This document shows positions 475 to 17,249 of a DNA stretch of 64,000 nucleotides, piece after piece. The notes below the pieces were generated by a model. That model worked only from the letters and a program-made list of their open reading frames with translations. It made no database searches and had not been told where the DNA came from. This DNA is from Lepidodermella squamata. Taxonomy: Eukaryota; Animalia; Gastrotricha. A program made the position numbers and the translations under genes. Position 1 is the first letter of the stretch; each line of letters opens with the position of its first letter. Location: the NCBI GenBank assembly GCA_047495785.1, contig JBLDXI010000054.1, forward strand, positions 1 to 64,000. The letters run 5' to 3'.

Positions 475-1031
475 ATGATCCCATCGATTCTATATTTTCT
501 TACATCTCTCCATGCGGTCCTTTGTAAGTTATAAACATCATCAGTTTTACCGCTTACTTAATCAGTTGCATAGGTTTGTCATGCTACTCATATAGCAGTG
601 TCAGTCCCGGGAGCACACTCGGAATAGCAAAAAGCGAGTGCGATGCTTGCTGGGCTTTTCAAACTGTTACGACCGACTGTGACACCACCTCTGCCACGAG
701 AGTTGATCTTTTCATGCAATGTGCATGTCGAGCTGGATCCACTACCTGTACAGGTGTGAGACTCAAACAAGATCAATATTGTGGATTCCAAAACTTGACG
801 ACAAATACGTGCTGGGGAGCTGTGAAGGAATGTGTTTGTTGCTCAAATTACTGCAATCATGAAAATTTCTGCATTCCACCAACCGATAAAAAGTTTTACC
901 TTCTTACGACAGCACCTCCAAGCGATACTACGTCACAGTCAAGTGGACGAAACACCTCTAACGCTTTAAACTTCAGATTCCTCACCGCAATAATTCCAGC
1001 TATAATCCTGATCTCGCTTCATTCAATTTAA
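475..1031 (+). CDS. Ly6/uPAR three-finger (quiver/Lynx-like) protein, predicted secreted and GPI-anchored; 2 exons (475-523, 574-1031)
   Basis: Exon 1 encodes signal peptide MIPSILYFLTSLHAVL. A GT..AG intron at 524-573 joins in frame to LSCYSY. The Cys-rich domain ends in CCSNYCN, followed by an S/T-rich linker and a hydrophobic C-terminus. Confidence 0.8.
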
Positions 1032-1104
1032 ATTACGCGAAACAAATAATTTCCTGAATAAGTTTATTCTTGATGACAGTTTTGCGTCTCCATATATGCC
1101 TATT

Positions 1105-1235
1105 CACAAAATTTGAAAAAATAAAAAAGTTGAGACGCGAGTTGGAATCGAACCAGTTACTTTATTCATACAACAAATTTGAAAAAGTTAAAAAAACTTG
1201 TGACGCGAGATGGAGTCGAACCGCATCCTTTATAA
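1105..1235 (-). repeat. Two diverged ~70-bp tandem units, each with a Pol III B-box followed by a T-run on the minus strand
   Basis: Minus-strand GGTTCGATTCCAACTCGCGTC and GGTTCGACTCCATCTCGCGTC, each followed by T6-7 and TTTTTCAAATTT. Confidence 0.6.
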
Positions 1236-1649
1236 GCATTATAAGAAAGCGCATTTTTGTGTGTACACTGTGGCGTAGTGGATAAAGCGTCTGCCCTAGC
1301 AGACAGGCCGTACCTAGGCCTTAAACGGGGAGTGATGCCGCTAACGTGTTTGCCCAGGCGGTTAAACTGAGCAACGTCCTGGTACCGACGTAAAAAGGTC
1401 CCGTCCAAAGACGTAAAACTAAAACGACCTTGGTAGCGTCGAAAAACCTATCACGACATTTGTGAGGTCGTTAAAACTTCTATGTTAGGGAGATGAGCAA
1501 CCAGTTCTCCACTGCGGTGAAAACTGCATGTTTTAAACTGGAAGGAAAGTCGTAGAAGACCTTCAGGCATCACGGGGCGGAGACTTTTGCTTTCGCAATT
1601 TTTATTTACAGCATTATATAAAGTAATAACAAGTATATAGGTTGGGCCT

Positions 1650-1731
1650 CGTCCCGTAGCTCAGTGGTTCACGCACTGGGCTTTCCGTTTTGAGGGTCGG
1701 GTTCGAGTCCACACTGAAACAGAGAATTTTT
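1650..1731 (+). ncRNA. tRNA-like Pol III transcription unit (not a canonical tRNA)
   Basis: A-box TAGCTCAGTGG (1657-1667) and B-box GGTTCGAGTCC (1700-1710) at tRNA spacing, TTTTT terminator at 1727. Acceptor and anticodon stems do not pair. Confidence 0.5.
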
Positions 1732-1824
1732 CTTTCTTTTCTTCTCTTTCTTCTTCTTTCTCTTTCTCTTTCTTCTTCTTCTTTCTCTTTCTCTTTCTTC
1801 TTCTTTCTCTTCTTTTCTTTCTTT
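1727..1824 (+). repeat. Polypyrimidine (TTC/TTTC/TC)n low-complexity tract
   Basis: About 100 nt of only C and T. Confidence 0.95.
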
Positions 1825-1827
1825 AGA

Positions 1828-2100
1828 TTAAAACTTTTGCTTTTTCATTATCCAACTTCCACGATCCGTACTTTCAATAATATGACTGCTCAGAAGCGAA
1901 TTAGATTGTCGAATTTCGCCCACTTCACGAGAATTCAAACAGTAAAAGTCATTTATAATATTCAGTAATATATTATTCTCCTCGGTGAAATCGAACACCC
2001 AGCCGTAGCAATTATCCATGTACATATCCAATTTCGATAAATAGAACTGAAGGCTTTTGAGTTCCTGAGGGCTTTTGGGGTACTTGATCATTTGCTCCAT
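1828..2100 (-). CDS. Small hypothetical Polinton protein downstream of pPolB
   Basis: ORF from ATG 2100, co-oriented with and immediately after pPolB; no recognised domain. Confidence 0.5.
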   Translation of the reverse strand: MEQMIKYPKSPQELKSLQFYLSKLDMYMDNCYGWVFDFTEENNILLNIINDFYCLNSREVGEIRQSNSLLSSHIIESTDRGSWIMKKQKF

Positions 2101-2133
2101 TTTCACCTTATCTTATAAGCCTCACTGCTTTAA

Positions 2134-5100
2134 CTAAAAGAGGGAATCGCTACTTCTCATCAGCTGCATGAAATCAATCATGAAATGGCCGTGCGCGAAA
2201 GTGTTGATGCCATCATCACTGACCCATCGCTTATCATCATAGGGACACAGGGCAATCTTGGAACTTTGCATCGTAACTAAATTATGGGAGAATGATCGAA
2301 TCTGATTGAAATTTATATTGACTACTTTCTTGTTCTTCACGCAATCCCTGTAATGGTCGAATGTCAGCTTCGACTTCACACCCTGCCGCTTAACTCCCTT
2401 CGCCTTTTTTATTTCATCTTTTTCTGAGTACAAAATTGCATAGACCTTGGATCGTGCCCCGGCGAATTCTCGTATTACACGTCCCTTTGCTTCGTCTTTA
2501 AATACGCCGTTAGTTTTACAGTTGACAGTTGAGAATAGGAAGTGATCTTTAGGATAATCAGAGAAATCGAATAGGTTTTCGATGGGTTTCATGTCTGTGT
2601 AAACGTCTTCAGTTGTGATATGGTAGCACAACGAATCTGTGTCTGTGAAAAGAAGCTTAGCTTTGTCGCCGTACTTTCGTTTGATGACATTGTAGTGGAA
2701 GTCGTACATATGCACCTTGGACAAATCCAAAATGGCTGCTCCAACGATAATTGGTCGATCATAAAAGATCTCAGTTTTTGCCATTTCCACGCTGAACAGC
2801 TCGTCACTTATCTTCTTAGCGTCCTTGAATGTTGGTTTGTTTACTAGTTTCTGAAGCTTCTTAGGGCAAGTAACCAGTTTTAAGTCAATGCGATTCCGAA
2901 CGTTCTCACAAGTTTTACCGAAAATGACGTTATTCATCAGTTTGAAAAACCCCTTCTCAAATTCGTTGCTAGCCTCTTTTCGCTTTCGAGTATTGAATGC
3001 GATATAGGGCTCGGCCCAATTGCTCTGTTTGAACTTCAAAGCTCGGTGCACCTTTTTCAGAACTAAACCATTATCAAGAGCTTGCTGTAGCGCGCGATAG
3101 TGCATGACGTAATGTTTCTTGTCGTTCAGATTTTGTGTTAGCTTTTTCACCTTCGCCGGCCTGTTTAGTCCTAATTGCTTATGCAGATCTTGCATGTGAG
3201 GGCTCGGTTCGCAAAGAATATGCTCTGGACAGAACGGATAGTCATTATGTGAGTCATGAAGCCTTGCAGGATAGTCGATATCAACCTCCAGCATGTACCC
3301 GAATTCGTCTTTGGCCCCAAGTGACTTCACGAAATCTTTGGTGATTGCTTCAGGACCAATCCATTCGAAGTCTTTCTGCGGTAACCACTGGGTCATCGCG
3401 AAAGAATAAAGCGCGTTGGCGTCCCAATACATTATAAACGATTTCGGAGCATTTGCGTCATAGTCTGTCATACCTTCGTTATTAGCCTTCGCGTACCTCC
3501 CAGGAATAACAGCTATACCGCCTCTTATGCCTTTTTCAACGAATTCAAGCATCTCCTTATTATCAAAGAGATCCAGTTCAACACGTGTGTATTTCAGCAT
3601 CGCGTCCCAACTTAACCCAGGTGCACCTAAATAATGCGCCGGGTCCAGATCGTAATAGCTTATGCAGGTGTCTCGAAAACTGTCAAAACAATCTGCTAAC
3701 AAGAGAACATCTGTTTTCAAATACAGGTCGTGGTAGTCTTTCAGAGTTTTGCAATTCAGTTTTGACCAAACGGTTTGTGCGTGTTCATAATCCTCGTCAG
3801 ATATAGAAGTTATTTCGATTTTGTTATCATCAAGCGAACAAGAATTTAGTCTGTTTGAGAAATGCGACTTATTCGGTAGCTGAGTTTCATTCAGTTTGTC
3901 GAGGCTATCTATATAATCGTACGGATAAACTCCCTTTCGAAGCAGCAGGGATCTTTGTTCAGTTGTGAACTTAGAAAGCTGTTCATCAAAATGAGCGAAC
4001 CTCTTTCCCGATTTTTTCAGATTACTGACTATTTGGTCCAGGCTTTCACTCATAAACTGAAACGAATCGATAAATCGAAGTTTGCCTATACTAAAACTTG
4101 AATACTTTTCCGAGGAATTAGCTATGACGTCAATCGTCAACAGGTTTGGTCTTTTCTTTTTGTCTTCTTTTTTGAAATTTGCAATCTTTTCTCCATTGAT
4201 TTCGTTCACTACTTTTCCGGCTGCCTGCATTATCAAGTGCGAATCGTACCCACTCAGGTTATGAAAAACAACCGGGATGAAAGAATGCTTGAGATTCAAA
4301 TTCAGATTGCAGGCATTATGAGCAGCTCCTCTGAAACGGCCTGTAAGATGGTCATGATCGCGGACTTTATCGTCGCCCAAGGCGCTTCGGCAAACATGGC
4401 AGTGCTGTGCATTATCATAACTTTGTTGCTCTGGTTGAGATAACACCATGTCTTTATTGGTTTCCTGGATAAATTTCCTCAAACTGTATTGCTTTTTAAT
4501 CAAGAATCTCAGGAACTGCTCCGCACAATTTGCCCCTTCAAACTGCCAATACTTCGAACGGATCTCAGGTACCTTACTAGCCAGTAAACATCCGAAGGAA
4601 TTCGCAACATGCTTCTGATAAATCAAGGACCTACCCTTTTGAACATCGGAATTCGTTAGCGTAGTCTCCGCATCACAATAGAAAACAAACGGTACTTCAA
4701 GCTGCTTGTAGTAATTTTTGAAAATAACTCGGCTACCTTTCGGAGGAAACTTCACTATGACGTTGCCATTTACTATGCAATTATGCTCTTTAAGCTTTAT
4801 TTCGCTGTCGAATCCAGTCAGACACTGTAAGCACCAATGCTTTTTGTGCTGATCAGAACTAGGCAGCAACCGGCTCAAATTTTTTATCCAGCTGAAGTGT
4901 GCTATCACCTTAGCACCGTCTCTGAGAGTAGTTCGCAGTAGGTTAACTTCTTGGGCGTACGGTTTCTTCGACGCGTAGTATGAAATAAAGCGATGGCAAC
5001 CATCTTTTTCTTTGTATTCAATCACGTTGATCTTTATCCTATTCTGATCTTCAAGATTTGAAATATCGTTCCACGAAATGGGAAACTTGATACCGTCATG

Positions 5101-6177
5101 TTTCAGTTCATTTTTAAATAACTTGTACTTGGATGTTTCCTGTGCATTTTTATCTACTGGATGCAAGCAAGCCAGCATGCTCCAGATTATGCATTCATCG
5201 TCGGTGTTTTTAACATTTATAACGGCCTTTTTATCAGCAATAAACTTCGGTGTTGGAATGTAAGATCCTGTCCCTAACGGGCAGTAGCTGAAAGCACAAA
5301 CACGGAGTCGCGAAATGTTTTGAAAGATCCATCCGGAGCCGCGCTGCTCGTAATTCTCAATGGCACCACCAAGTTGAGAGAAGTGTTGGTCTACAACGCT
5401 CCCTATGTCATCATATTTCCTGATAACTGGGGCAGCCTTTACAGCGGAAGACCATTTATGTTCTGATTTACTATTGTTGTCTTTTTTCCAATTCAAATCA
5501 GCGTTAAACACGATTTTGATGTTATCATTTTGCTCTAATTTTTCTTGCACGTAGTTAACAACTGATTCCCTAGCCTTTTCGGTAAATAGATGGAAATCAC
5601 TTCCTGAATTATGAGCTTCAATGTCTAACCTATAAAGGATATTCTTGAAATGCTCGGGATTTTTCTGCTCATTAAATTCCATGTAATTGTTATCCTCAAG
5701 AGAGTTAATCCGCTCGATATAATTGTAGCCTTCGGCAATCAACTTGTTGTACGTTGGTCCACCCCATTTGATGAATTTCAAAGTCTTAGGATTTATGACA
5801 TGATTTTCTTTCTGCCCTCTGAACACCATTTCACCAGCAGCATTCAAGAAATAGCCATCTTTACGCAGCCTCTGATAGTCCTGGCTGCCCCTTTTTATCT
5901 TGCTCACACCTCGTTTCATAAGCTGATTATTCGCATCGTCATAGAAAAACTCCTTTTCAAGTTTTTTGAAGTTGGACGAACCGATAGAAATATATTTGTT
6001 TGTGATAGGATTTAATACTGTTTTCCGTTGGGTTCTCTCGTAAGGCATCCCACCCTTCGTCCAACGGTTATCTTTTAATTCAAAACCCTTCCTCAATAGC
6101 GCATTGTATGCTCGGCCACCAACCTTAATACGACGACCGTTAGGTCCCATTACATTGGTTTCACTGTTGTCGGTCAT
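2134..6177 (-). CDS. polB: Protein-primed family B DNA polymerase (terminal-protein region, vOTU-like domain, EndoVII-like Zn insert, exonuclease, polymerase)
   Basis: YCDAET (ExoI), FHNLSGYD (ExoII), KGVYPY, YWDANALY (motif A), KLMNNVIFGK (B), TDTDS (C). CHVC..DHDHLTG..HNACN EndoVII insert. DECIIWS...HFSW vOTU-like Cys/His. Confidence 0.97.
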   Translation of the reverse strand: MTDNSETNVMGPNGRRIKVGGRAYNALLRKGFELKDNRWTKGGMPYERTQRKTVLNPITNKYISIGSSNFKKLEKEFFYDDANNQLMKRGVSKIKRGSQDYQRLRKDGYFLNAAGEMVFRGQKENHVINPKTLKFIKWGGPTYNKLIAEGYNYIERINSLEDNNYMEFNEQKNPEHFKNILYRLDIEAHNSGSDFHLFTEKARESVVNYVQEKLEQNDNIKIVFNADLNWKKDNNSKSEHKWSSAVKAAPVIRKYDDIGSVVDQHFSQLGGAIENYEQRGSGWIFQNISRLRVCAFSYCPLGTGSYIPTPKFIADKKAVINVKNTDDECIIWSMLACLHPVDKNAQETSKYKLFKNELKHDGIKFPISWNDISNLEDQNRIKINVIEYKEKDGCHRFISYYASKKPYAQEVNLLRTTLRDGAKVIAHFSWIKNLSRLLPSSDQHKKHWCLQCLTGFDSEIKLKEHNCIVNGNVIVKFPPKGSRVIFKNYYKQLEVPFVFYCDAETTLTNSDVQKGRSLIYQKHVANSFGCLLASKVPEIRSKYWQFEGANCAEQFLRFLIKKQYSLRKFIQETNKDMVLSQPEQQSYDNAQHCHVCRSALGDDKVRDHDHLTGRFRGAAHNACNLNLNLKHSFIPVVFHNLSGYDSHLIMQAAGKVVNEINGEKIANFKKEDKKKRPNLLTIDVIANSSEKYSSFSIGKLRFIDSFQFMSESLDQIVSNLKKSGKRFAHFDEQLSKFTTEQRSLLLRKGVYPYDYIDSLDKLNETQLPNKSHFSNRLNSCSLDDNKIEITSISDEDYEHAQTVWSKLNCKTLKDYHDLYLKTDVLLLADCFDSFRDTCISYYDLDPAHYLGAPGLSWDAMLKYTRVELDLFDNKEMLEFVEKGIRGGIAVIPGRYAKANNEGMTDYDANAPKSFIMYWDANALYSFAMTQWLPQKDFEWIGPEAITKDFVKSLGAKDEFGYMLEVDIDYPARLHDSHNDYPFCPEHILCEPSPHMQDLHKQLGLNRPAKVKKLTQNLNDKKHYVMHYRALQQALDNGLVLKKVHRALKFKQSNWAEPYIAFNTRKRKEASNEFEKGFFKLMNNVIFGKTCENVRNRIDLKLVTCPKKLQKLVNKPTFKDAKKISDELFSVEMAKTEIFYDRPIIVGAAILDLSKVHMYDFHYNVIKRKYGDKAKLLFTDTDSLCYHITTEDVYTDMKPIENLFDFSDYPKDHFLFSTVNCKTNGVFKDEAKGRVIREFAGARSKVYAILYSEKDEIKKAKGVKRQGVKSKLTFDHYRDCVKNKKVVNINFNQIRSFSHNLVTMQSSKIALCPYDDKRWVSDDGINTFAHGHFMIDFMQLMRSSDSLF

Positions 6178-6269
6178 GATTGTATATATTATACTAAGAA
6201 AATAATCTTTAAGTAATTTTCCGCAATTGAAGAAAATCTTATATAGTTTTTTTCTGATGATAATATATA

Positions 6270-6569
6270 ATGACTACAAACACGATTAAGCAAAGAGGTC
6301 GCCCGAAGAAATATCTGACTGAAGAAGAACGCGAGACAGGCTATCGTGATCAGCATCGTATAGCTTGCAAAAACTACTGGAAGAAAACTATGGAAGTTGT
6401 TAGAGCAAGTCGTGGACAGGGAAAATGTCATGAAGTAACTTCACAAATGGAAGGAGCGATCACAAGTGACAGAATGTGTGAGCCTAAGCCTGAAAACCTT
6501 ACGACGAAGGATATAGAGGAAATTATAAATCAAATGTTGGCAACAAAACTGCAAAAATTGCTCTCATAG
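6270..6569 (+). CDS. Small AT-hook DNA-binding protein, divergent from pPolB
   Basis: KQRGRPKKY AT-hook followed by a charged helix. Confidence 0.7.
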   Translation: MTTNTIKQRGRPKKYLTEEERETGYRDQHRIACKNYWKKTMEVVRASRGQGKCHEVTSQMEGAITSDRMCEPKPENLTTKDIEEIINQMLATKLQKLLS

Positions 6570-6594
6570 GCTTCACTGTGCGGTCATGATTGAA

Positions 6595-8016
6595 CTAATC
6601 CAACAAGTTATCAGCGGGCTCCCAAGTCGGCTTATCATATCCTGCCCATTTGACGTAAACCATTTCTTTACCTTTAACTTTCTTCCTTCTCAAAATCTTT
6701 TCAACCCGGTAAAGGTTTTCTTGCTGTTGGGAAGATTTCTGCAATTCCTGTTCGTAAAAGCTACCTACTACTGGTTCACCATCTAGAGCCTCGATTTTAT
6801 AGGTTCTAGGAATGGTTTCGTTAACCTTGACGACTTTAAGAAGCTCTTCACTCCATGAAGGGTGGAAACCTTTTTCAAAGGTCTCTTTCAGTCGGCTGAT
6901 CCTCACAATGTCACCAAGAGCGAACTTGGGCTTACGTAACTTTTTTTCATCTGATTCCGCGTACAAATTGTTGTGAACGATGTCTCTATTCTTTGGATCT
7001 ATCGCCTGAGTTGGCGTCATTCGAATCGATCTGTGCTTAGTAAGGTTGTACTCTCGAACTAGGTCATCTAATATTGCAACCCAATTACGTGAGTTGTTAA
7101 GTGTAAAGCGTTTCCACATTCTAGTTTTAAGAGTCCTGTTAAACCTCTCGATCATAGGGTTATGAAAATTTTCATAGGTCGAGTACCGATTCACCTTATT
7201 TGCTTTCAACCATTTAGTGAAGATTGAATTATAAAATTCACTACCCTCATCGACCCAAATATTTTTAGGCTTTCGTCGGCTTGTCTTAATAACTGATGAG
7301 AAGGCATCGAAAACACTTTTTGCGTCTTTTGATTTCAGTGGGACGGCCCATGCATATCTGCTGAAGCAGCATATCACGGTCAAAATGTACTTATAGCCAT
7401 TATTGTCATCGGTCAAGTCGTTCATGAAGACAATGTCCATGCCCCATGTGTCGTCAACGTTATGCACATAAACGCGACGTCTTGGAAACCGCTTTCTTGC
7501 GGGTTTATGAAGCTCCTCAGCTAATGTTTCAAACTTCATTTTGCTAACTGTTTCTGATCGCGGCGGCTCTTGTTTTGTCTTTCGCTTCGGAATTTGTTGC
7601 GAGTAGCTAACAGGTCTCCTATCTCGAAGAGCCATGCCTTTCCCTTGCAGATGGTCAGCGATTCCACCTTCAACGAACGTTTTGTAGACAAATGCTGCCA
7701 TAGCCCTCTCATAACCACTTTTCGATCGATCACTAGCAATCCTGAGTGCCTTGTCTGCAAGAATTCTATCGCTAACGGTGCGTCGCTCTCTGTCTTTGTA
7801 AAAGTGATAAGCAGCGTCATGTTCTCTGGCTGCCTCGTCCAACTCATTTATACCTCTGTAGCCCTGGCTCATTCTTTGAACAAAATGTGTTCCTGGGCCA
7901 GCGTAGCTATATGACTGCTTATTGTTATAAGACCCTCCAGGAACGGTTTCTCCTTGAACGGGATAACTCGGTAAATGGAATTCCACCGGCAAATTGTTAA
8001 TTATTCTGTCAAACAT
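6595..8016 (-). CDS. Fusion of parvovirus VP1u-type phospholipase A2 (PLA2X), retroviral-type DDE integrase and chromodomain
   Basis: YAGPG Ca-loop and DEAAREHDAAY PLA2 motif; WGMD..WVDEGSEF..IERFNRT DDE triad; YRVEKIL..YVKWAGY..TWEP chromodomain. Confidence 0.95.
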   Translation of the reverse strand: MFDRIINNLPVEFHLPSYPVQGETVPGGSYNNKQSYSYAGPGTHFVQRMSQGYRGINELDEAAREHDAAYHFYKDRERRTVSDRILADKALRIASDRSKSGYERAMAAFVYKTFVEGGIADHLQGKGMALRDRRPVSYSQQIPKRKTKQEPPRSETVSKMKFETLAEELHKPARKRFPRRRVYVHNVDDTWGMDIVFMNDLTDDNNGYKYILTVICCFSRYAWAVPLKSKDAKSVFDAFSSVIKTSRRKPKNIWVDEGSEFYNSIFTKWLKANKVNRYSTYENFHNPMIERFNRTLKTRMWKRFTLNNSRNWVAILDDLVREYNLTKHRSIRMTPTQAIDPKNRDIVHNNLYAESDEKKLRKPKFALGDIVRISRLKETFEKGFHPSWSEELLKVVKVNETIPRTYKIEALDGEPVVGSFYEQELQKSSQQQENLYRVEKILRRKKVKGKEMVYVKWAGYDKPTWEPADNLLD

Positions 8017-8052
8017 TATTCATTAGGACTTGAAATTCTAAATAAAGAGCAA

Positions 8053-8745
8053 ATGATCAATTGGGACAGCATCGTTCAATCACAACGACAGGAGTACAAA
8101 AATGGATCTCCCTTTTTCCCTCAGCATCCTTCTCGATGTCTTATTATTGGACCGTCCGGGACCGGAAAGACTTCAGATCTGCTGACAATACTGCATAACT
8201 CCTTTTTTCACAAGATCTACTTATATAGTAAAACTCTTGATGAGGACAAGTACGAGTACCTGATTAAGCTTCAGAAACAGAAGGAAGACATTCTTTCCAA
8301 GCAAGGAATTTCAGTAAACCTTGTTCACTCTTCCAATGACATTTCTGAAGTCATGCCTCTTGAAGGCCTAGATAAAAGTTACCAGCATGCTTATATATTC
8401 GACGATATTTGTATGGAGCAAAAGAGGCTGCAAGAAACACATATCGGTGCAATGTGGATAAGATGCCGTAAGTACAACGCGTCAGCCTTTTATCTTTCGC
8501 AGTCATATTTTAAGATCCCAAAGGCAATTAGGGATAATGCCGATTTTGTTGTGCTGAAGAAGCTGGCTGACAACAGGGAGCTGAGCATAATTCATCGAAT
8601 ATACGCCCCCTCAATTAAGACAACTGAATTTTTTGCCAAGTACAATGAAGCCGTTAGCCTTCCTCATGGTTCGTTTATCATTGACAGTCAAAGCAAGCCA
8701 CAGTGTCTACGACTTAGAGCTAATTACGCTTCAATCTTCGCCTAA
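8053..8745 (+). CDS. FtsK/A32-like DNA packaging ATPase
   Basis: Walker A GPSGTGKT, Walker B YIFDD, RKYN..LSQSYFKIPKAIRDN. ATG 8053 chosen because TCTA precedes it. Confidence 0.95.
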   Translation: MINWDSIVQSQRQEYKNGSPFFPQHPSRCLIIGPSGTGKTSDLLTILHNSFFHKIYLYSKTLDEDKYEYLIKLQKQKEDILSKQGISVNLVHSSNDISEVMPLEGLDKSYQHAYIFDDICMEQKRLQETHIGAMWIRCRKYNASAFYLSQSYFKIPKAIRDNADFVVLKKLADNRELSIIHRIYAPSIKTTEFFAKYNEAVSLPHGSFIIDSQSKPQCLRLRANYASIFA

Positions 8746-8945
8746 TCATTTTTAACTTTTAAAAATTAGTTTAAATTATCTATCAAACAGTTTGAATTAT
8801 CTTGGCTTTACTGATTACCTCCAGTATAAGATGAGTTCAACTGAGCGTTCAATAGGCGATCATTAGGCGTTCAAGAAGCGATCATGTGGCTAACGAGGAG
8901 CGACCGCTGGGCGAAAAAGGAGCGATTTATTCTAGCCAGAGTGAT

Positions 8946-9989
8946 ATGCCGCTACGCGAATTAACAACTGATGAACAAATTCGAATTCTTGAAGATTTAG
9001 ATAAGCAGGAGAAGATGTACGACCGACACTTGGCCATGGTTAAAGGTGATGTATATGCTTTAAAGTATAAGCATAGTGTAAATGTTGAACCCGATCCCCT
9101 TACAGCTTTGCATGAGACTTACAGGCAGATGCCAACTGTAGAGGCAATAAGATCCGTTGCCAAGGAGCTCAAACAAACAGCAAAGAGAAGCTTACCAACA
9201 GCTAATCACCCGCATCACCTAGAAGCGGTATTACCAAAGGCGGAACCGACAACTGAAGAGGCGAAGGAATCAGTGGAGGACATAGTTTTGAAGAGACATA
9301 ACTTCCCCACAGCTAAAGAAATTGAAGAGGCTGGGGCTGACCCCGCGCATATTATTGTATCTCTTTCGCACTATAATAAAAATGTGTTGGGCTCCCAACT
9401 AGCTCAGCTCACTAAAAAAGGATACAAAGACTCTCCACAGTATCAATCGATTCAAAATGATATACAGATTTTGAAAAACTTCAAGAACTCGTTGCTTGAG
9501 ACATTTGAGAATCAAAGGGTGCTACTTGAGAAAACTGGTACAGGTATATCCAACAATTATTTGAAGATTGGTAGGTTTTACGCCAGAAAAGACGACATAA
9601 AGCGAGGGGTTTTAAGGATTCGCAAGAAGAATAAAGGCAAAGTGCAAGGTTTAGCCGATATAGACATAAGTGATGGTGTCAAACAATTGCTCTTGAAAAG
9701 GTACAATCCGAAGGTGAACTTTTCCAAGCAAGACTATGATCAATACCAAAAAATTTGTGAACTGACTGGATATCGACCAAAACCCCATTCTAAAATCTGG
9801 AACAGAATTTACGTGACTGATGTTGTTGATGCCCAAAAGAGGCTCGTAAACGCGATTGGTGAAATCAGAGCGGGAAACAATAACGCTGAAATATATAACG
9901 AAGTTGTTAGTATTGCAGATTTTCTTTTGAAGAACAATAGATTGACCAAAGCTGAATACGAAAATCTAATAACAATGGTAAATGGGTGA
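8946..9989 (+). CDS. Conserved Polinton core protein (PZ-like)
   Basis: C-terminal IGEIRAGNNN motif typical of Polinton proteins; located between ATPase and penton; ATG 8946 preceded by TCTA. Confidence 0.7.
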   Translation: MPLRELTTDEQIRILEDLDKQEKMYDRHLAMVKGDVYALKYKHSVNVEPDPLTALHETYRQMPTVEAIRSVAKELKQTAKRSLPTANHPHHLEAVLPKAEPTTEEAKESVEDIVLKRHNFPTAKEIEEAGADPAHIIVSLSHYNKNVLGSQLAQLTKKGYKDSPQYQSIQNDIQILKNFKNSLLETFENQRVLLEKTGTGISNNYLKIGRFYARKDDIKRGVLRIRKKNKGKVQGLADIDISDGVKQLLLKRYNPKVNFSKQDYDQYQKICELTGYRPKPHSKIWNRIYVTDVVDAQKRLVNAIGEIRAGNNNAEIYNEVVSIADFLLKNNRLTKAEYENLITMVNG

Positions 9990-10722
9990 TCCAATATTTC
10001 TGCCTTTGGAATATTACTGCAATAACAGATCGGACGCCAGCAACGTCATCGATCGTTACCTAAATGATAAGATCGATTTCACAAAGCGCAGCATCGCCGT
10101 TTCATATATTCACTTTTACGATGTTTTTTATAATGTATCACAGGCTTCAGGTAATAGTAAGCTCAGATATAAAGATCCAGAAGATGCGACTTTTGAAATA
10201 CGATTTCCTGATGGAACCTTCACTTTTCGTGATTATAACAATTATATTCACTTTGTTATGAAAGGAAACGGCCATTTCAAGACCATCGATGGCTCAGAAG
10301 TTTACGGCATAAGCTTATCTGTCAATACTGTTCTGAATAAACTGAGCTTTCGAATTCAACCAGGTTACGCTCTTCTGATCGAGCATGATGCTACGTCTGA
10401 ATTTCTAGGTGTAGACAAAGGCGAATTCCGAGCAGATTTTAATGGGCAACATATTCCTAACATCACGATGTCAAATGACTCAATGTTTGTTCACTGTAAC
10501 GTCGTCAATAATAGCCTAGTCCCGGAGGTTAGTGATGTCATCTTCACCTGTCCGATTAACAAAAATTTCGGTCAACACGTTAACATTGTTCCAAATGAGA
10601 AACGTTACTTGTCCTGTACGAATGCTAATACACAAAACATAAAAATAACGCTCACCACCCAGGCTGGTGCAACACTGGAGATGACTGAAAGAAAATGGGG
10701 TATTGGTCTAGATATTCGCTAG
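9982..10722 (+). CDS. Minor capsid protein (penton, single jelly roll)
   Basis: FYNVS..N..LRY, FPDGTF, VHCNVV, ITLTTQAG pattern; beta-rich, 246 aa. Confidence 0.85.
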   Translation: MGDPIFLPLEYYCNNRSDASNVIDRYLNDKIDFTKRSIAVSYIHFYDVFYNVSQASGNSKLRYKDPEDATFEIRFPDGTFTFRDYNNYIHFVMKGNGHFKTIDGSEVYGISLSVNTVLNKLSFRIQPGYALLIEHDATSEFLGVDKGEFRADFNGQHIPNITMSNDSMFVHCNVVNNSLVPEVSDVIFTCPINKNFGQHVNIVPNEKRYLSCTNANTQNIKITLTTQAGATLEMTERKWGIGLDIR

Positions 10723-10745
10723 CTTTTTCTAGTTACTTTGTTATA

Positions 10746-11045
10746 ATGAAAAATCGCAGAACTAAAGCATATGTCGTAGGACGCGGTTACGTAGACATCG
10801 CAAGAAATATGCTCGACAAATTGACTGGTGTCTTACCGGTTCAGACTTTAGCCAAATCAGCTCTTTCAAAGGCAGCGGAAGTTGCCGGTGACAAAATAGG
10901 TGCATATGCCGCAAATAAACTTGCAGACAAAGTTATGCCGGCAAAGCCAGCTGAGCGCTCTATTCAGGCTATTGAGGAGCTTGAGAAGAAAATCAAAAGA
11001 GACATCGATAATTACACCGGAACAGGCTTTAAGCTGATACGCTAA
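10746..11045 (+). CDS. Small basic Ala/Lys-rich virion core protein (pVII/pX-like)
   Basis: Basic N-terminus, VVGRG and YTGTG adenain-like sites, amphipathic helices; lies between penton and major capsid. Confidence 0.7.
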   Translation: MKNRRTKAYVVGRGYVDIARNMLDKLTGVLPVQTLAKSALSKAAEVAGDKIGAYAANKLADKVMPAKPAERSIQAIEELEKKIKRDIDNYTGTGFKLIR

Positions 11046-11064
11046 ATATCTAATGCATATATAA

Positions 11065-12438
11065 ATGCTTCAATCCGAAATAGTGAACTGTCTCTTTGAG
11101 AGCCCGACCATAGATGATCGGCAGTTCGAAAGGAAAAGCTGGGCCGAGGTTTGTGCAACAAGCTTTATACAGGATCAGCCCTCTCAGCCTTCTCGCCTTA
11201 TCTTTTCTACATATAACTTGCGTGAGTTGTTTATATTGCCGAGGGAAGCCTATATCCAGTTGACTGTTGAGTTCCGACGAAACGATAGTCAGGCTTTCAA
11301 AGCAACCGACAAGTACGCAATTAGGAACCATGTTATATCCATGTTTGAAACAGTTGAAGTGCAAGTAGGTGATAATGATAACCAGGTAGAGCAAACACGT
11401 TATAACGAACACTGGAGCTCGTTGCTGGGCGTTATTCACTGGTCTGATGACTATGCGCGAAGTCTTGGGGAAGAATCACTTTTCGCCAGAGACTACCCAG
11501 CCCATGTCAATTATGATATGACTCCTGAAGTTACAGCAGAAAGTTTCGACCCTGCGAAGAACAGCTGCAACGAGGGACTACTCTTGAGATCTTTGTATGT
11601 TAAGGATCATAAGATGGTTGTCACACTTTACTTAAGGGACATTCCTTTCTTCCAAAATTATTTTGGGATGTGGACCAAGGCGAGATTTCGTGTGATATTA
11701 ACACCAAATTACACCAAACCCATAGTCGCAGCCATAGGGAAAAACGATGATTTGCCGGAAGGGATGCATTTCCAAATTTCGTCAGCTTATATGTTTATTC
11801 CGGAAGTCACATTGATGCCTGAAACTAGAGCACGCATTTTGAAAGCCTTCAATACGGGTCTCACGAAACTTTACAAATGGCAATCGCTAGAATGCTTTCA
11901 GAGCCCCCAGTTTGCTGTGAATAGTTCATCGGTACAATGGACAATCACATCTGAGATGAAAAAACCAAGCTGGCTGTATATTGTATTCTTGCAAGACTTC
12001 TCAGACGCAGAGTATCAAACAAAACTGACACAAATTTACACTCAGTGGAATATATTCAGCTACTCTCTCATGATAAACAATAAGGAGGCGTTTGCCGAGG
12101 CCAACATGAACTTTTCCCGCTTCAACGCTCACCGGCTCTATAACTATATTAAGGAAAACATGAACCATTTCAATGATCGTGAAAGCACGAACACTGGTAG
12201 TCAGCTTAGTTACCTTGATTTTTGTCGATTTTACCGTTTCCTGGCATTCAATCTGGAAAGTGTAGATGCCGGTGCTATATATAATTCACGCGGTGACCAA
12301 AGCGTGAGCGTCACATTCAAAGCTAGAATCAGCCCTGTCGATAAGCCATTAGTTATGTTTTGTTTTATTTTTAGAGAAAAAGAAATAGGCTTCAACTACA
12401 AAGACGACAAGCTCGAGATAAGCCTTAACATGCTCTGA
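11065..12438 (+). CDS. Major capsid protein (double jelly roll, hexon-like)
   Basis: 457 aa, beta-rich; LPREAYIQLTVEF, SMFETVEVQVG and KPSWLYIVF segments typical of Polinton capsids; context. Confidence 0.88.
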   Translation: MLQSEIVNCLFESPTIDDRQFERKSWAEVCATSFIQDQPSQPSRLIFSTYNLRELFILPREAYIQLTVEFRRNDSQAFKATDKYAIRNHVISMFETVEVQVGDNDNQVEQTRYNEHWSSLLGVIHWSDDYARSLGEESLFARDYPAHVNYDMTPEVTAESFDPAKNSCNEGLLLRSLYVKDHKMVVTLYLRDIPFFQNYFGMWTKARFRVILTPNYTKPIVAAIGKNDDLPEGMHFQISSAYMFIPEVTLMPETRARILKAFNTGLTKLYKWQSLECFQSPQFAVNSSSVQWTITSEMKKPSWLYIVFLQDFSDAEYQTKLTQIYTQWNIFSYSLMINNKEAFAEANMNFSRFNAHRLYNYIKENMNHFNDRESTNTGSQLSYLDFCRFYRFLAFNLESVDAGAIYNSRGDQSVSVTFKARISPVDKPLVMFCFIFREKEIGFNYKDDKLEISLNML

Positions 12439-12459
12439 ATTTTCTAACTTAGAATAATA

Positions 12460-13038
12460 ATGACTAAATACATTCCATTCGACATTAAACTAACAGAGAC
12501 ACAGAGAAGAGCATTTCAAAAACCAGGCCAAGTTGTATTGCGTTTCACAATTGATCAGCTTCTTGCAGATCCAAATGGTTCCAAGTTGTTGTTGACGCAA
12601 AGGCAGATAGATAAAGTAATGAAGAGCAAACAAAGGATGAAAGGGCTTGATATTAAACTGAGCAAAACTCAGCTCCGGAAGAATCAGTCTGGCGGGTTCC
12701 TGTTACCAGCGCTTGCCGCAGCTTCCAAATTTATAGCACCTGTAGCTGTTGCAGCGCTGAGCGGCCTTGCCAGTTCCCTCGCCAGTACAGCAGCTGACAA
12801 GATCGTAGGCAAAGGCGTGTCGCTGACAATACCAAAAGAGGATTTAAATGAACTGCAAAAGGCGGTTTCGCTTCTGGAATCCCGACAAATTGTGCCTGCT
12901 GGCAGTAGTAAGGCAATTAAAAGCCATATAGAGCAACAGGGTGGAGCTTTTATCTTGCCGCTTGTATCAAGCTTACTGGGTGCATTCCTTCCGACCTTAT
13001 TCGGAAAAGGGGTTTATATGCCGTGGGAAAAAAACTGA
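12460..13038 (+). CDS. Virion core / membrane-active precursor (protein X-like) with multiple adenain-type sites
   Basis: QSGG-FLLP, IVGKG, QQGG-AFILP and LFGKG flank hydrophobic/amphipathic segments. Confidence 0.75.
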   Translation: MTKYIPFDIKLTETQRRAFQKPGQVVLRFTIDQLLADPNGSKLLLTQRQIDKVMKSKQRMKGLDIKLSKTQLRKNQSGGFLLPALAAASKFIAPVAVAALSGLASSLASTAADKIVGKGVSLTIPKEDLNELQKAVSLLESRQIVPAGSSKAIKSHIEQQGGAFILPLVSSLLGAFLPTLFGKGVYMPWEKN

Positions 13039-13481
13039 CAAATACCGGGTTTTATCCCCTATCCAATCTTGAGATAACCGAAGCTTTGAAGAGGCTCCTC
13101 GGAAAAGACTTCAAGGGCTGTTATGCTCGGGATGACCTTCCTGATAAACTTGAACGAGGATATTACGTCATTAACCTGGACGATAAAGTTAACCGCGGAA
13201 GTCATTGGGTCTCAATGGCTGTGAAGTCGACTGAAATAATCTACTTCGATAGCTTCGGGTTTATATGCCCTAATGAGATCATTAAGCGTCGCGGCAAACG
13301 AGTTATTTGGTATTCCACACATGATATACAACATCCTGGCTCTGTTGCATGTGGCTTCTATGCCATTTACTTTCTAAGAGAATTAGGTAAAGGTAGGGAT
13401 AAGTTAGCTATTTTGCTAGACTTCAATAACACCGGGTCACCGCACAATGATGACTTACTGAAAAATCTATTGTTAAGCTAG
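13023..13481 (+). CDS. Adenain-like maturation cysteine protease; no ATG before the catalytic His, probably made by -1 frameshift from the upstream ORF
   Basis: GSHWV, YFDSFG and IQ....ACGFY catalytic motifs; overlaps the upstream ORF in the -1 frame across A AAA AAC TGA. Confidence 0.93.
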   Translation: MGKKLTNTGFYPLSNLEITEALKRLLGKDFKGCYARDDLPDKLERGYYVINLDDKVNRGSHWVSMAVKSTEIIYFDSFGFICPNEIIKRRGKRVIWYSTHDIQHPGSVACGFYAIYFLRELGKGRDKLAILLDFNNTGSPHNDDLLKNLLLS

Positions 13482-13483
13482 AT

Positions 13484-13663
13484 ATGTATTGCCTGCATTG
13501 TAGGAAAAACACTAAATCAGTGAATGAGCAGCAATTAGCCACTCGTAATAACCGAGCTCTCATGACAGGATCTTGTACACTCTGCGGTATGACAAAGTAT
13601 AAATTCATAAGAATGTTAAAGAGAAACGCCATCGTAGATAAAAAGGATGCAAGCGTCCGTTGA
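13484..13663 (+). CDS. 59-aa zinc-ribbon protein (DUF5679-like), absent from the ORF track
   Basis: MYCLHCRKNT...TRNNRALMTGSCTLCGMTKYKFI; two CxxC pairs; TCTA 14 nt upstream. Confidence 0.85.
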   Translation: MYCLHCRKNTKSVNEQQLATRNNRALMTGSCTLCGMTKYKFIRMLKRNAIVDKKDASVR

Positions 13664-14153
13664 AGATGAATTGAAGAGACTGATGGATAATTTTGAGAAT
13701 TCTAAATCAGTGAGAAAGACATTTTCTACCATGCCTTACGTGTATTGCGATGCGTGTGCCACAGAACTTTTGCTTGACGAAAGGGCGAATTTCAACGTAT
13801 GCCCAAACTGCGGTTTATGTTATCCATACTGTGAGCACTCCCCGCCATTCAAATTAGTACCTTACAAACGAAAATGGCATTTAATGACTGTAATTAAAAA
13901 GCGCGGTATAGAAATGCTACCTCCTCAACTTGAGAGGCTGATGTCGAGCTTTATCAAGTTTGACTCGGGCTATGCAGAACTCTTTCCCGATCAAAATATG
14001 ATGCACCTTGACTTTGTTATCAAAGCTCTGGCTCAGGAACATGGATACGACCTTGTGGCACAGAGCGTACACGTGAAATCGGTTAACGATAAGACGCTGA
14101 GGCAATGGCGGAATAAGTATAATCTAGTCATCGCTCATTATGAGATCGAATGA
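13647..14153 (+). CDS. VLTF3-like (poxvirus A2 / NCLDV late transcription factor) zinc-ribbon plus helical protein
   Basis: CDAC..VCPNCG zinc ribbon, then YKRKWHL (cf. YxRxxHF) and a helical C-terminal region. Confidence 0.65.
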   Translation: MQASVEDELKRLMDNFENSKSVRKTFSTMPYVYCDACATELLLDERANFNVCPNCGLCYPYCEHSPPFKLVPYKRKWHLMTVIKKRGIEMLPPQLERLMSSFIKFDSGYAELFPDQNMMHLDFVIKALAQEHGYDLVAQSVHVKSVNDKTLRQWRNKYNLVIAHYEIE

Positions 14154-14799
14154 AATATTCATTCCAAGTGAATGGTTTGAAAATACTCGACAGGCAGCAA
14201 TTTATTTGAGGGCAGACGGCAGTACTCCATTCGCGGCAAACCTAAACGCGAATAGCTACTGCATCGAAAATTTGGGCGGCCCCGTTTTCGACAACGATGC
14301 TGTAAGCAAAAATTGGGTTGAGCGAAGTTGTTTAATGATTCAATCCGATCAGACTGTTGACTTTAAAAATGCTAGGCTCACGAACATCCATCCACCAATA
14401 AATCCAAACGATGGCGCGATTCGGGCTTCCAGATTGATATGCTCTGGCAAGGTTTCTCTTGCGCGCGAGAATAAGCTAAGTTTTGATAACATGATTTCCG
14501 GAATGCCTGAAGTAAGCGATAGCTTAGTGTTTCGGGCAGACTTAACAGCCAGAGTGGAAATGTGGTTCCGGCTGGACGACAACAGAGCCACATCCTTCAC
14601 CCTTGATTTCTTCAAAAACAACGGTAACTTGTTCTCGAAATACTTCAACTATAACAATGTTAATTTGGAGAGCAGCAATGAATACTGTTCCTTTATAGAG
14701 CGATTCCGATTGAATGATAGCTTAACGGTTATTGCAGCAGCTGACGAAAGCATACAACTGTCATACATTTTGATTATTTCTAACCTAAAGAATACGTGA
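14140..14799 (+). CDS. Fibre/spike-like protein
   Basis: YLRADGS then two IxNLxxPxxxxDA-type shaft repeats and a beta-rich C-terminal head. Confidence 0.7.
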   Translation: MRSNEIFIPSEWFENTRQAAIYLRADGSTPFAANLNANSYCIENLGGPVFDNDAVSKNWVERSCLMIQSDQTVDFKNARLTNIHPPINPNDGAIRASRLICSGKVSLARENKLSFDNMISGMPEVSDSLVFRADLTARVEMWFRLDDNRATSFTLDFFKNNGNLFSKYFNYNNVNLESSNEYCSFIERFRLNDSLTVIAAADESIQLSYILIISNLKNT

Positions 14800-14813
14800 T
14801 AAATATATTCAGA

Positions 14814-15395
14814 ATGAATGACAACCAGCTAAAAACAGTAGATAGTATTTACCCCACTGCTCCTAGACTACAAATGTCTTCTACTCAAGAGTTCAGGCTT
14901 GCTGAGCTCCGGCGCCTAAATGATGTTTTCAACACAGAAATATCGAAAAGAAAGAAGCTTTATAATAGGTATTCCCGTTTTTCGTCAATTTGCAAAGCTA
15001 CTATTCATGGAATAACGGGCGGCACAACATCGCTTGCTATTGGTGGAATCGCACTACTGTCACTTGGCCTCCCAACCGGTATAATGTTGGAGATTACTGC
15101 AGCTTCGGGCGGCATGGTCATACTAGCTCTCAACCTGCTTGACTTAAAGTTCGAAAGGAAAGCCGAAAAACATGAAAGAATCGCCACTCTTGCCATGTCG
15201 AAAGCCAACTCAATAGGCGACATGATCAAAACAGCCCTGGAAGATAACCACATCAGTGACACTGAGTATCAGGTTATTATGAGAGAAAACGAGAAATTCC
15301 ATGATATGAAAAAGTTGCTTCAGAAGAGTTTAAACTGTGACCGCACGCAGATATTTCTTGAGGAACTGAAAAAGCACGGTGTGAACGTCCCTTGA
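14814..15395 (+). CDS. Polinton membrane protein: coiled coil, hydrophobic hairpin, N-terminal PTAP motif
   Basis: IYPTAP, FRLxxL..E...R....RY, two Gly-rich hydrophobic helices, KHERI..LA..K.NSI...ALED..IS..EY. Alternative GTG start at 14796. Confidence 0.8.
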   Translation: MNDNQLKTVDSIYPTAPRLQMSSTQEFRLAELRRLNDVFNTEISKRKKLYNRYSRFSSICKATIHGITGGTTSLAIGGIALLSLGLPTGIMLEITAASGGMVILALNLLDLKFERKAEKHERIATLAMSKANSIGDMIKTALEDNHISDTEYQVIMRENEKFHDMKKLLQKSLNCDRTQIFLEELKKHGVNVP

Positions 15396-15396
15396 G

Positions 15397-15651
15397 CTAG
15401 CGAAAAGGCGAGTAAAATATCACACGTTTCTTTGGTGTTCTAACTACTTTAGCATGATTGCCTTTGATTTTCGAAGGCTTTTTAATTCTATCCCTATTCA
15501 CAAAATACCCTAGCAACGCGACGATTACACTCAATGCAACAAAAATGCGTTGAAGCTGGGTGTTCGTCCTTAAGCAGTCGATCTGAAGTTCTCTTACAAG
15601 CACCTTAATATATGAGATTATTTCTTCTTGGGCACTCGAGTAAGTATTCAT
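15397..15651 (-). CDS. Small single-pass membrane protein
   Basis: IFVALSVIVALLGYFV helix followed by a basic tail; tightly packed with neighbours. Confidence 0.6.
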   Translation of the reverse strand: MNTYSSAQEEIISYIKVLVRELQIDCLRTNTQLQRIFVALSVIVALLGYFVNRDRIKKPSKIKGNHAKVVRTPKKRVIFYSPFR

Positions 15652-15669
15652 TAAGTATTAAAACGATTT

Positions 15670-16005
15670 TTATTTTTCTCGTCGCGCCCTCATTTCAGCT
15701 ATGAATTTCTCTATATCTGACTTCCTTTTCTGTCGCCGTTCATACAGCTCAGCTTTGCGCCTCTGGCTCTGTAACTTACGGTCGTTATCTTCTTTTTCCC
15801 TTGCAGTCAGCAAATCGCTGTATTTCTGTTCAATGACAGCCTTCTCGTTCTCCAAAGTCTTAATACGGGTATTTGAGGACTGTCTCTTGAGCGAGGAATA
15901 CTGATCGCTGATAATCTCAACTTCCTGCTTCAGTTTGTTGATATCTTCATCCTTCTCATCGACAATTTCATCGACCTCTGTGTATGAAAGAAATCCTTTC
16001 TCCAT
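15670..16005 (-). CDS. Charged coiled-coil protein
   Basis: E/K/R-rich heptads; AT-rich leader before the ATG. Confidence 0.7.
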   Translation of the reverse strand: MEKGFLSYTEVDEIVDEKDEDINKLKQEVEIISDQYSSLKRQSSNTRIKTLENEKAVIEQKYSDLLTAREKEDNDRKLQSQRRKAELYERRQKRKSDIEKFIAEMRARREK

Positions 16006-16012
16006 GCTTATA

Positions 16013-16270
16013 TTATTTACCGAGAAATCTTCTTCTTAGCAGGTAAGCTTTCTTGCCGCCGACATGGGTGACATCATTTGGAATCAGACTGACGTTGATG
16101 CCACCGCCCTTCAACGATGAGAACCGTTGTTGTTTGCCTAAATGATAGTAAATCGTGCCTCTGCTGAGTCCCACTTCAGCTGCGATTTCATCTACTGTCT
16201 TGGAGCTATTCTGATATTCATGGATTGCTTGGCTGATTTTGTCTGGATTTATTGCCTTGCGACGAAGCAT
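16013..16270 (-). CDS. Helix-turn-helix DNA-binding protein
   Basis: TVDEIAAEVGLSRGTIYYHL is a canonical HTH. Confidence 0.8.
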   Translation of the reverse strand: MLRRKAINPDKISQAIHEYQNSSKTVDEIAAEVGLSRGTIYYHLGKQQRFSSLKGGGINVSLIPNDVTHVGGKKAYLLRRRFLGK

Positions 16271-16578
16271 CTTATATTTATTTGAGAAATTTAAATATTT
16301 AAATATTTCAATGTTCCATAGTTCAAATGTTCAAACTAAATAAAGGATGTCATCAGCCAATTTATATATTAAAATATTTTAACATTTGTATGTTGAAATG
16401 CGGATTGTTACTTCTGCAATCGATTGGCTTCAACGCCCGATGGAGTCACGTCATGAAAAGGAGAAGCTGCAAGAGATGTTGCTTCCCTCAAGTAACTCGC
16501 TGATTTGCGTAAATGAACAATGAACTATTCTTAAATTGAGGTAAATTTAAAAGTCAAAATGGGATGCAGTCAACAATT

Positions 16579-16872
16579 TTAGTCCTCGTCACTTGATGGC
16601 ACAATGTCGTCAAATACAGTTAGAAATTGCGTAAATGCTTTTCGGGTTTCTTCATCATCAAAGGGGTACCGTTTAACTGCAGTTTCGACGCGTCTTCGCT
16701 CGATGTCTTCGTATGCAGATCTGCGCTTCTTTATCCTGCAGAATCGAGATACTCTCGAATAGTGTGCCAAAGCATCTTCGATGCGCATTCTCGGAAACAG
16801 ACTTTCCATTGCACGAACTTCTCGGTTGGGTTCGTCCCTAGTAGGCCTGATACTTTTGACATAGGTGCTCAC
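16579..16872 (-). CDS. Hypothetical Polinton protein
   Basis: Protein-like charged composition with acidic tail; start codon uncertain. Confidence 0.45.
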   Translation of the reverse strand: MSTYVKSIRPTRDEPNREVRAMESLFPRMRIEDALAHYSRVSRFCRIKKRRSAYEDIERRRVETAVKRYPFDDEETRKAFTQFLTVFDDIVPSSDED

Positions 16873-16982
16873 ATGGAAACAAAACGATGACAGGATGGGA
16901 CCATATAAGGTTCTGCGATGGTCCTGCCAGTCATCATCAAGATCAGGGGACGTTGTTAGGCAGTCCTGGTCATCGCTTACAG

Positions 16983-17249
16983 CTATGCATAACGAAGTCG
17001 AGGTTCAATCACGTATTTATCATACAACAATTTTTTACCAGAGACACCTCCTGCAGGTAGCCAAACTTTAACTTCTGCAACATTAGTACCATCTCTGTCC
17101 GCCAGTGCTGAAATTCGCTGTTGCTTGTTCGGTCCTGTCCAGTGGTAAGCTAATCTACACTCCATGCTTTCAGATGATGGGCAAGACTTTAGAAAAGTTA
17201 CTACGCGTGCAAAATACAGGCGGCATACTGATAAGCACAGTTTGATCAA
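16983..17249 (-). CDS. Hypothetical protein
   Basis: ORF co-oriented with neighbours; no motif; start uncertain. Confidence 0.3.
   Translation of the reverse strand: MIKLCLSVCRLYFARVVTFLKSCPSSESMECRLAYHWTGPNKQQRISALADRDGTNVAEVKVWLPAGGVSGKKLLYDKYVIEPRLRYA

Follow-up and report, generated by a model that had tools for sequence, protein, structure and literature searches.

How is a protease made when its reading frame offers no ATG ahead of its catalytic histidine? The question is raised by a Polinton/Maverick-type element, recognized by its gene content, at 1.8-16.3 kb of a 64,000-nucleotide stretch of Lepidodermella squamata DNA (assembly GCA_047495785.1, contig JBLDXI010000054.1, positions 1 to 64,000 of the forward strand; hereafter the window), in which an adenain-type protease overlaps, in the -1 frame, the 3′ end of an open reading frame (ORF) for a structural-type protein, here termed X-like. 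The answer is quite probably a low level of -1 ribosomal frameshifting at the slippery heptamer A_AAA_AAC, which would produce an X-protease fusion much as retroviral gag-pro does. The features on which the argument turns are these:

12443-12446, + strand: TCTA motif, likely a promoter or leader word, 17 nucleotides (nt) 5′ of the X-like ORF
12460-13038, + strand: X-like ORF of 192 amino acids (aa), its N-terminal ~75 aa confidently modelled and followed by SGGF, QGGA, helices and a G-x-G
12921-13481, + strand: open -1 frame encoding the adenain-type protease (His 13203, Asp 13248, Cys 13350)
12997-13011, + strand: LFGKG, candidate adenain-type cleavage site (X residues 180-184), just 5′ of the shift site
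13023-13025, + strand: GTG in the protease frame, context gccGTGg, a rival near-cognate start
13029-13035, + strand: slippery heptamer A_AAA_AAC in the X frame (seven A at 13028-13034)
13036-13038, + strand: TGA stop of the X-like ORF, adjoining the heptamer, a candidate pause signal

The 3′ end of the X-like ORF reads GAA AAA AAC TGA, placing the heptamer in the X frame directly before the stop, as the initial annotation had it; by chance, a strict heptamer is found in 2.1% of 8-codon stretches across the ORFs of the element. Mouse mammary tumour virus (MMTV) gag-pro uses this same A_AAA_AAC. The excerpted text of PMC5009743 lists A_AAA_AAC among the heptamers most shift-prone on mammalian ribosomes. 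The overlapping -1 frame carries an intact set of catalytic residues, with the His, Asp and Cys columns invariant or nearly so across 16 protease homologues, a profile of which matches the adenovirus protease 1avp (E 1.7e-6); the Pfam family Peptidase_C5 matches the window protease at E 5e-4, below its curated cut-off. The conserved part of the protease begins at 13056 (PLSN), and the first ATG of the frame lies at 13215, four codons past the catalytic His codon at 13203, in agreement with the earlier description. The downstream frame is thus of the gag-pro type, an ORF without an ATG of its own, with a GTG at 13023. Because the protease lacks an ATG before its His and overlaps the X-like ORF in the -1 frame at a slippery heptamer, some ribosomes are likely to slip there.

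The split between the two frames is not a sequencing error in the run of A, since the junction is bridged without an insertion or deletion by three assembled contigs from two studies (two in run X1, one in X3). Against the window they carry 3, 4 and 11 letter differences, with 0 gaps and no change listed in 13018-13038, so that the seven A recur in them and an eighth A, which would have made a simple fusion, is not seen. Contigs of run X1 cover 11065-14200 at a depth of ~800-1000 throughout and show two haplotypes at the junction, a pattern suggestive of a high copy number or of element DNA existing free.

The strongest argument for frameshifting is the recurrence of this layout in distant relatives. 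The locus set comprised 180 loci and the window, extended to 199, and gave 416 ORF ends after deduplication; it is an incomplete sample, as the metagenome scan behind it contributed the best 80 of 97 loci confirmed among at least 589 stretches. A heptamer was counted if it lay in-frame within the last 8 codons of the X-like ORF. In nine deduplicated lineages an X-like ORF directly adjoins the protease, and eight of these (window, L108, L106, L110, L146, L105, L176 and L093) show both a -1 overlap and an in-frame heptamer:

Window: A_AAA_AAC
L108/109: G_GAU_UUU
L106/107: A_AAU_UUU
L110: A_AAA_AAC
L146 and L105: U_UUU_UUA
L176: U_UUA_AAA
L093 group: A_AAA_AAA and A_AAA_AAG

Protease identity between lineages is 29-63%, and since the heptamers themselves differ, no single inherited word explains the pattern. 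On the protease tree (50 chosen rows) the heptamer lineages are scattered, with 5 label changes, at least 2 of them forced by well-supported branches. Several of these proteases appear to have nowhere else to start: none of ATG, CTG, GTG, TTG or ACG precedes the PL[ST]N motif in L106/107, L110, L146 and five loci of the L093 group, the sole start-like codon at this position in L108/109 is a TTG made by the heptamer and the stop, and in L106/107 the -1 frame is open just 2 codons 5′ of the heptamer's end. In the window, L108, L106 and L093 a stop follows 0-3 nt past the heptamer. Among 394 control ORF ends the last 8 codons hold a strict heptamer in 53 and a broad one in 73, and a heptamer combined with a -1 frame that stays open over 100 codons or more in 3 (strict) and 4 (broad). 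Measured against composition-matched, per-locus backgrounds, with the window and L105 left out, strict heptamers in five of seven lineages give p 2.7e-5 and broad ones in six of seven p 7e-6. The survey of Polintons for a slippery site at this junction, which the initial annotation had called for, therefore favours its central proposal, a -1 shift joining a structural-type protein to a protease, as far as recurrence in divergent and in part startless relatives can do so. Two further ORF ends of this kind were encountered: at L143:858-1275 a non-X ORF ends in A_AAA_AAA with a long open -1 frame into a protease that also has an ATG, and at L112:853-1246 a protease ORF ends in A_AAA_AAA with a long open -1 frame into the next ORF.

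The closest relatives of the window proteins, available at the protein level, tell a compatible story. The eight best X homologues end in PWEKK, PWEKN, PWEKI, PWESKN or PWETKN, and four of the seven closest proteases are annotated with a start MG(x)KK that lies on the overlap itself. A two-frame compatibility test of 15 X/protease protein pairings placed the junction at the X stop in six close-clade pairings, forcing A_AAA_AAY or A_AAA_AAG, and forced A_AAA_AAC ~11 codons before the stop in three pairings of a more distant group; another four gave no heptamer among the rows listed. P0158 and P0125, candidate fusions that read the -1 frame of an X C-terminus, were left uncounted. Scans of viral contigs, genome contigs and phage records using X alignments or patterns did not find DNA of the close clade, and a junction-pattern scan returned 27 matches, none encoding a protease and one a marginal X match (E 0.033).

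A fused product of the predicted kind does occur, because four divergent proteins (P0095, P0102, P0129 and P0198) hold an X-like N-terminal part and a protease in one ORF; these look like natural single-ORF forms. In total, 28 of 241 proteins match both the X and the protease profiles. P0009, P0025 and P0225-P0240 also join X and protease in-frame, but their contigs are very long and they could be host copies in decay, for which reason they were not taken as evidence of a functional fusion. In several Polinton-like virus contigs (L028, L103, L111, L113, L124 and similar) the protease is fused in-frame instead to an unrelated N-terminal domain of ~200 residues.

The X-like product is likely a virion core precursor. 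Beyond its N-terminal ~75 residues the helices are modelled with low confidence (overall pLDDT, the predicted local distance difference test, 61), and the model has no clear match among known structures (best Z 4.8). Its family (A2) aligns to family A9 with an hhalign probability of 99.8, and one of the nine A9 members, L146, matches Pfam Adeno_PX (E 8.7e-9), a profile matched by none of the 21 A2 members, the window protein included. Because the link to Adeno_PX runs through A9 and L146, the label 'pX-like core protein' is reasonable but indirect; one Atlas cluster with 20% Adeno_PX (score 0.86) is a lead only. The LFGKG of the window protein fits the adenain pattern (M/I/L)XGX-G or (M/I/L)XGG-X, and among 21 X homologues G182 is invariant and G184 nearly so (at least 90%). 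The hydrophobic residue of the adenain motif, the Leu of LFGKG, is not retained in the closest X homologues; of the LFGK-G site first proposed, it is the G-x-G that is conserved.

A number of observations weigh against frameshifting at this junction. One of the nine lineages, L112/L170, has no heptamer, and an ATG overlaps the X stop in L105, L176 and L170. When the heptamer alone is scored over all 22 X-profile-matching ORFs, a set that takes in 13 weak matches, several of them 5′ of proteases with their own ATG, the enrichment is marginal: strict heptamers occur in 7/22 versus 53/394 controls (p 0.027) and broad ones in 8/22 versus 73/394 (p 0.052). The eight-of-nine count uses an 8-codon stretch and a weak match, L093, both chosen post hoc, and its lineages are partly non-independent. 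The heptamers of the close clade were deduced from proteins, with only P0023/P0001 apparently from one contig; P0018 and P0019, each paired with P0002, gave no junction placement, and P0018 ends in K-I, which is compatible with no canonical heptamer. Throughout the close clade a Trp codon forces NTG in the protease frame, and the window GTG is in good context. Lastly, no hairpin or pseudoknot is predicted at the window junction (z -0.26 to -0.72, with 16 of 30 shuffles equalling the pseudoknot), and none near the site in L108/109, L110, L176 or the L093 group.

These structural results come from eleven folded junctions. The stem at ~13046-13080 that the initial annotation had placed after the heptamer is rejected: its energy is -1.7 kcal/mol, all 8 of its pairs have probability 0.0, and five folds of the window region are no better than shuffles (z +0.46 to -0.42). 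A C-rich stretch ~10 nt 3′ in several lineages was likewise set aside as a signal, since it encodes conserved Pro/His. In two lineages, L146 and L105, U_UUU_UUA is followed ~8-10 nt 3′ by a hairpin (z -5.4 and -2.4); in L106 a possible pseudoknot is matched by 2 of 30 shuffles, and in L108 structure lies farther 3′ (z -2.4 at 90 nt). The heptamer of L146 (901-945) and L105 (3935-3980) is of the human immunodeficiency virus type, and their strong hairpins differ in sequence. The stable hairpin or pseudoknot 5-9 nt downstream that marks gag-pro-type sites is therefore seen in L146 and L105 and is missing in the window, and for this reason the window copy is not classed as structure-stimulated programmed -1 frameshifting. 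With no local RNA structure predicted, the shift would likely be stimulated by the neighbouring stop codon, by a structure formed over a longer range or by a protein. A precedent for the first is pea enation mosaic virus, where, according to the excerpted PMC5009743, a stop 3 nt past G_GAU_UUU is needed for frameshifting, and a stop-assisted, low-level shift may serve as the working model for the window copy.

The main alternative, an unlikely one in our estimation, is that a separate protease is initiated at the near-cognate GTG at 13023, reached by leaky scanning or by re-initiation past the X stop. Besides the context of this codon, the Pro-Trp that encloses it is retained in the eight closest X homologues, always giving cc-NTG-g, and in L105, L176 and L170 an ATG overlaps the X stop. 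Near-cognate initiation is conceivable within the close clade, because the Trp codon makes this position NTG in every member, but P0053 has a Leu codon where the window has GTG, and four lineages have no start-like codon at all before PL[ST]N. The GTG moreover lies 563 nt inside the X ORF and is preceded, at a distance of 5 nt, by an ATG in another frame; initiation there would leave the recurrence of heptamers unexplained. It also has no TCTA leader. This word, whose background rate is 0.0028 per position, stands at -15 to -18 before 8 of 23 candidate starts examined, those of the X and capsid genes among them, and the eight TCTA-led starts, all on the + strand, span 8037-14126 of the window; it is absent from this interval before all three candidate protease starts, which agrees with the earlier remark that the protease differs in this from most virion genes. 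TCTA is the late-promoter motif of mavirus and Cafeteria roenbergensis virus (CroV) in the excerpted text of PMC8547959, and its sharing with these viruses may point to a helper virus or to a signal dedicated to late transcription.

Less probable than this is a spliced mRNA linking an upstream start, or the X-like ORF itself, to the protease frame. Splice acceptors are used by adomavirus late genes, according to the part of 10.1101/341131 consulted, but in the window no AG occurs past the heptamer until 13072, by which point the conserved PLSN codons have gone by, and in L106/107 and L110 the open -1 frame lacks a YAG ahead of PL[ST]N. The contigs examined show no joint; none of them is a confirmed RNA run over the site, and X2, a presumed RNA run, does not cover the junction. 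Slippage of an RNA polymerase on the A run, such that some transcripts read into the protease frame, is a shade less probable still. The seven A of the window and the longer A run of the L093 group would suit it, as would a viral polymerase, at which the TCTA word hints by its late-promoter role in mavirus and CroV (PMC8547959, in part), but L108/109 and L106/107 share the layout despite their short runs, and in eight of eight lineages the heptamer keeps the phase of the X frame. That mutation or assembly error split a normally single ORF in a dead copy is largely refuted, for although X and protease share one ORF in many database proteins (the 28 of 241 above) and no terminal inverted repeats were found, the three bridging contigs all have the split despite 3-11 letter differences elsewhere, the eight closest X homologues stop at the same place, and the split recurs in lineages with different heptamers.

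If frameshifting at A_AAA_AAC is accepted, the pathway might run as follows. The X and protease frames would lie on a single mRNA, from which most ribosomes translating X would stop at the adjoining TGA and release X alone, and a minority would slip back one base at the heptamer and continue into the protease. Together with X, the fusion could then enter the particle at a constant low ratio, after which the protease would likely be freed at the G-x-G site just 5′ of the shift site. For the group as a whole it seems fairly likely, when all three statements are taken together, that the X-protease frameshift is ancient and widespread through much of the Polinton/Maverick group, that proteases have changed between frameshifted, in-frame fused and separately started forms from lineage to lineage, and that several lineages use a bare slippery site with an adjoining stop and not RNA structure.

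As in the gag-pro of MMTV, human T-cell leukaemia virus type 1 and simian retrovirus 1, a structural gene ends at the heptamer and the -1 protease lacks its own ATG, and the minor fused product would be expected to be packaged and processed. Unlike these, the element is a double-stranded DNA (dsDNA) Polinton whose protease is of the cysteine (adenain) type and whose partner protein is pX-like, the window copy has no predicted local pseudoknot or hairpin, and the frameshift is a predicted one. Phage lambda provides a second parallel in the -1 frameshift of its G-T tail chaperone, a low-level shift in the morphogenesis module of a dsDNA virus, conserved despite low sequence similarity (PMC5009743, in excerpt), which differs in involving bacterial ribosomes and a chaperone instead of a protease. 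A pX-like segment and an adenain-type protease belong to the same module in adenovirus (pX and protease) and in adintoviruses (PLA2X and GasderminX), and the portion of PMC8502044 consulted does not describe a frameshift between them. Closest of all is the work of Buck et al. (PMC11071296, section 16), who predicted slippery sites for penton and hexon-adenain ('Hexain') fusions of adintoviruses and relatives, that is, -1 sites in the virion module, one of which joins a structural protein to adenain. Those cases have hexon or penton as the partner and are KnotInFrame predictions, unlike the X-like partner, the ATG-less protease and the recurrence across lineages seen here; a supplementary record of theirs bears the name 'XAdenain', which the part of that paper available does not explain. 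The excerpted text of PMC8097293 includes the protease among the intact ORFs of vertebrate Mavericks. No X-protease frameshift is described in the excerpts of PMC8502044, 10.1101/341131, PMC8097293, PMC5009743 and PMC8547959 cited above or in those of 10.1101/2023.10.06.561300, PMC11161782 and PMC5803895, and none was found in the literature searched, which was seen in part and from which subscription papers, Repbase annotations and bioRxiv supplements stand apart. The novelty for Polintons suggested at the outset therefore extends, within these sources, to the X-protease junction and not to slippery sites in the virion module at large, given the hexon-adenain and penton predictions.

The assignment of the element to the Polinton/Maverick type draws on the genes that surround this junction:

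2134-6177, - strand: probable family B polymerase of the protein-primed kind, 1347 aa, read from its size and an FTDTDS motif
6595-8016, - strand: ORF with PLA2-like, rve integrase and chromodomain segments (Pfam E 4.9e-9, 1.1e-12 and 4e-8)
7975-8745, + strand: A32-type packaging ATPase (Pfam Pox_A32, E 7.4e-9)
11065-12438, + strand: probable major capsid protein, immediately 5′ of the X-like ORF
13484-13663: small DUF5679 gene with its own TCTA leader, directly 3′ of the protease

A chromodomain C-terminal to the rve integrase, a Polinton/Maverick feature of the adintovirus type, is present by Pfam. The virion genes of such elements are present too, in the form of an A32-type ATPase, an adenain-like protease and a double jelly-roll capsid gene, the last by an indirect link: the 11065-12438 product matches an ORF of L171 by BLASTP (E 5e-12), which in turn matches Pfam DJR-like_dom, and a single-sequence model of the capsid protein reaches a pLDDT of only 31. 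On the 1347-aa ORF Pfam finds only Endonuclease_7 (E 6.7e-4) and no polymerase match. The PLA2-like domain is fused in-frame with the integrase and chromodomain. No long inverted repeat was found in 900-17200, and the ends of the element were not located; short tRNA-like snippets lie at its left edge (1135-1720), where ARAGORN gives 0 matches, and Rfam returned just two sub-threshold long non-coding RNA matches. The remainder of the window, at 17.7-64 kb, holds ~20 single-ORF genes that resemble one another, encode 380-420 aa and lie in either orientation, and the two that were scanned both match the Cys-loop ligand-gated ion channel domain of Pfam, which points to an animal host.

RNA viruses, retroelements and tailed phages characteristically employ programmed -1 frameshifting. 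If it also holds as a conserved feature of the virion genes of eukaryotic dsDNA Polintons, these elements would have reached the retroviral gag-pro solution, in which one step both doses and delivers the maturation protease. Purifying selection on the shift signal would in that case add further indirect evidence that Polintons form particles. There would also be a consequence for annotation, since gene callers would truncate such proteases or score the copies as frameshifted pseudogenes, and many Polinton proteases now recorded as 'truncated' or 'broken' would be intact recoded genes.
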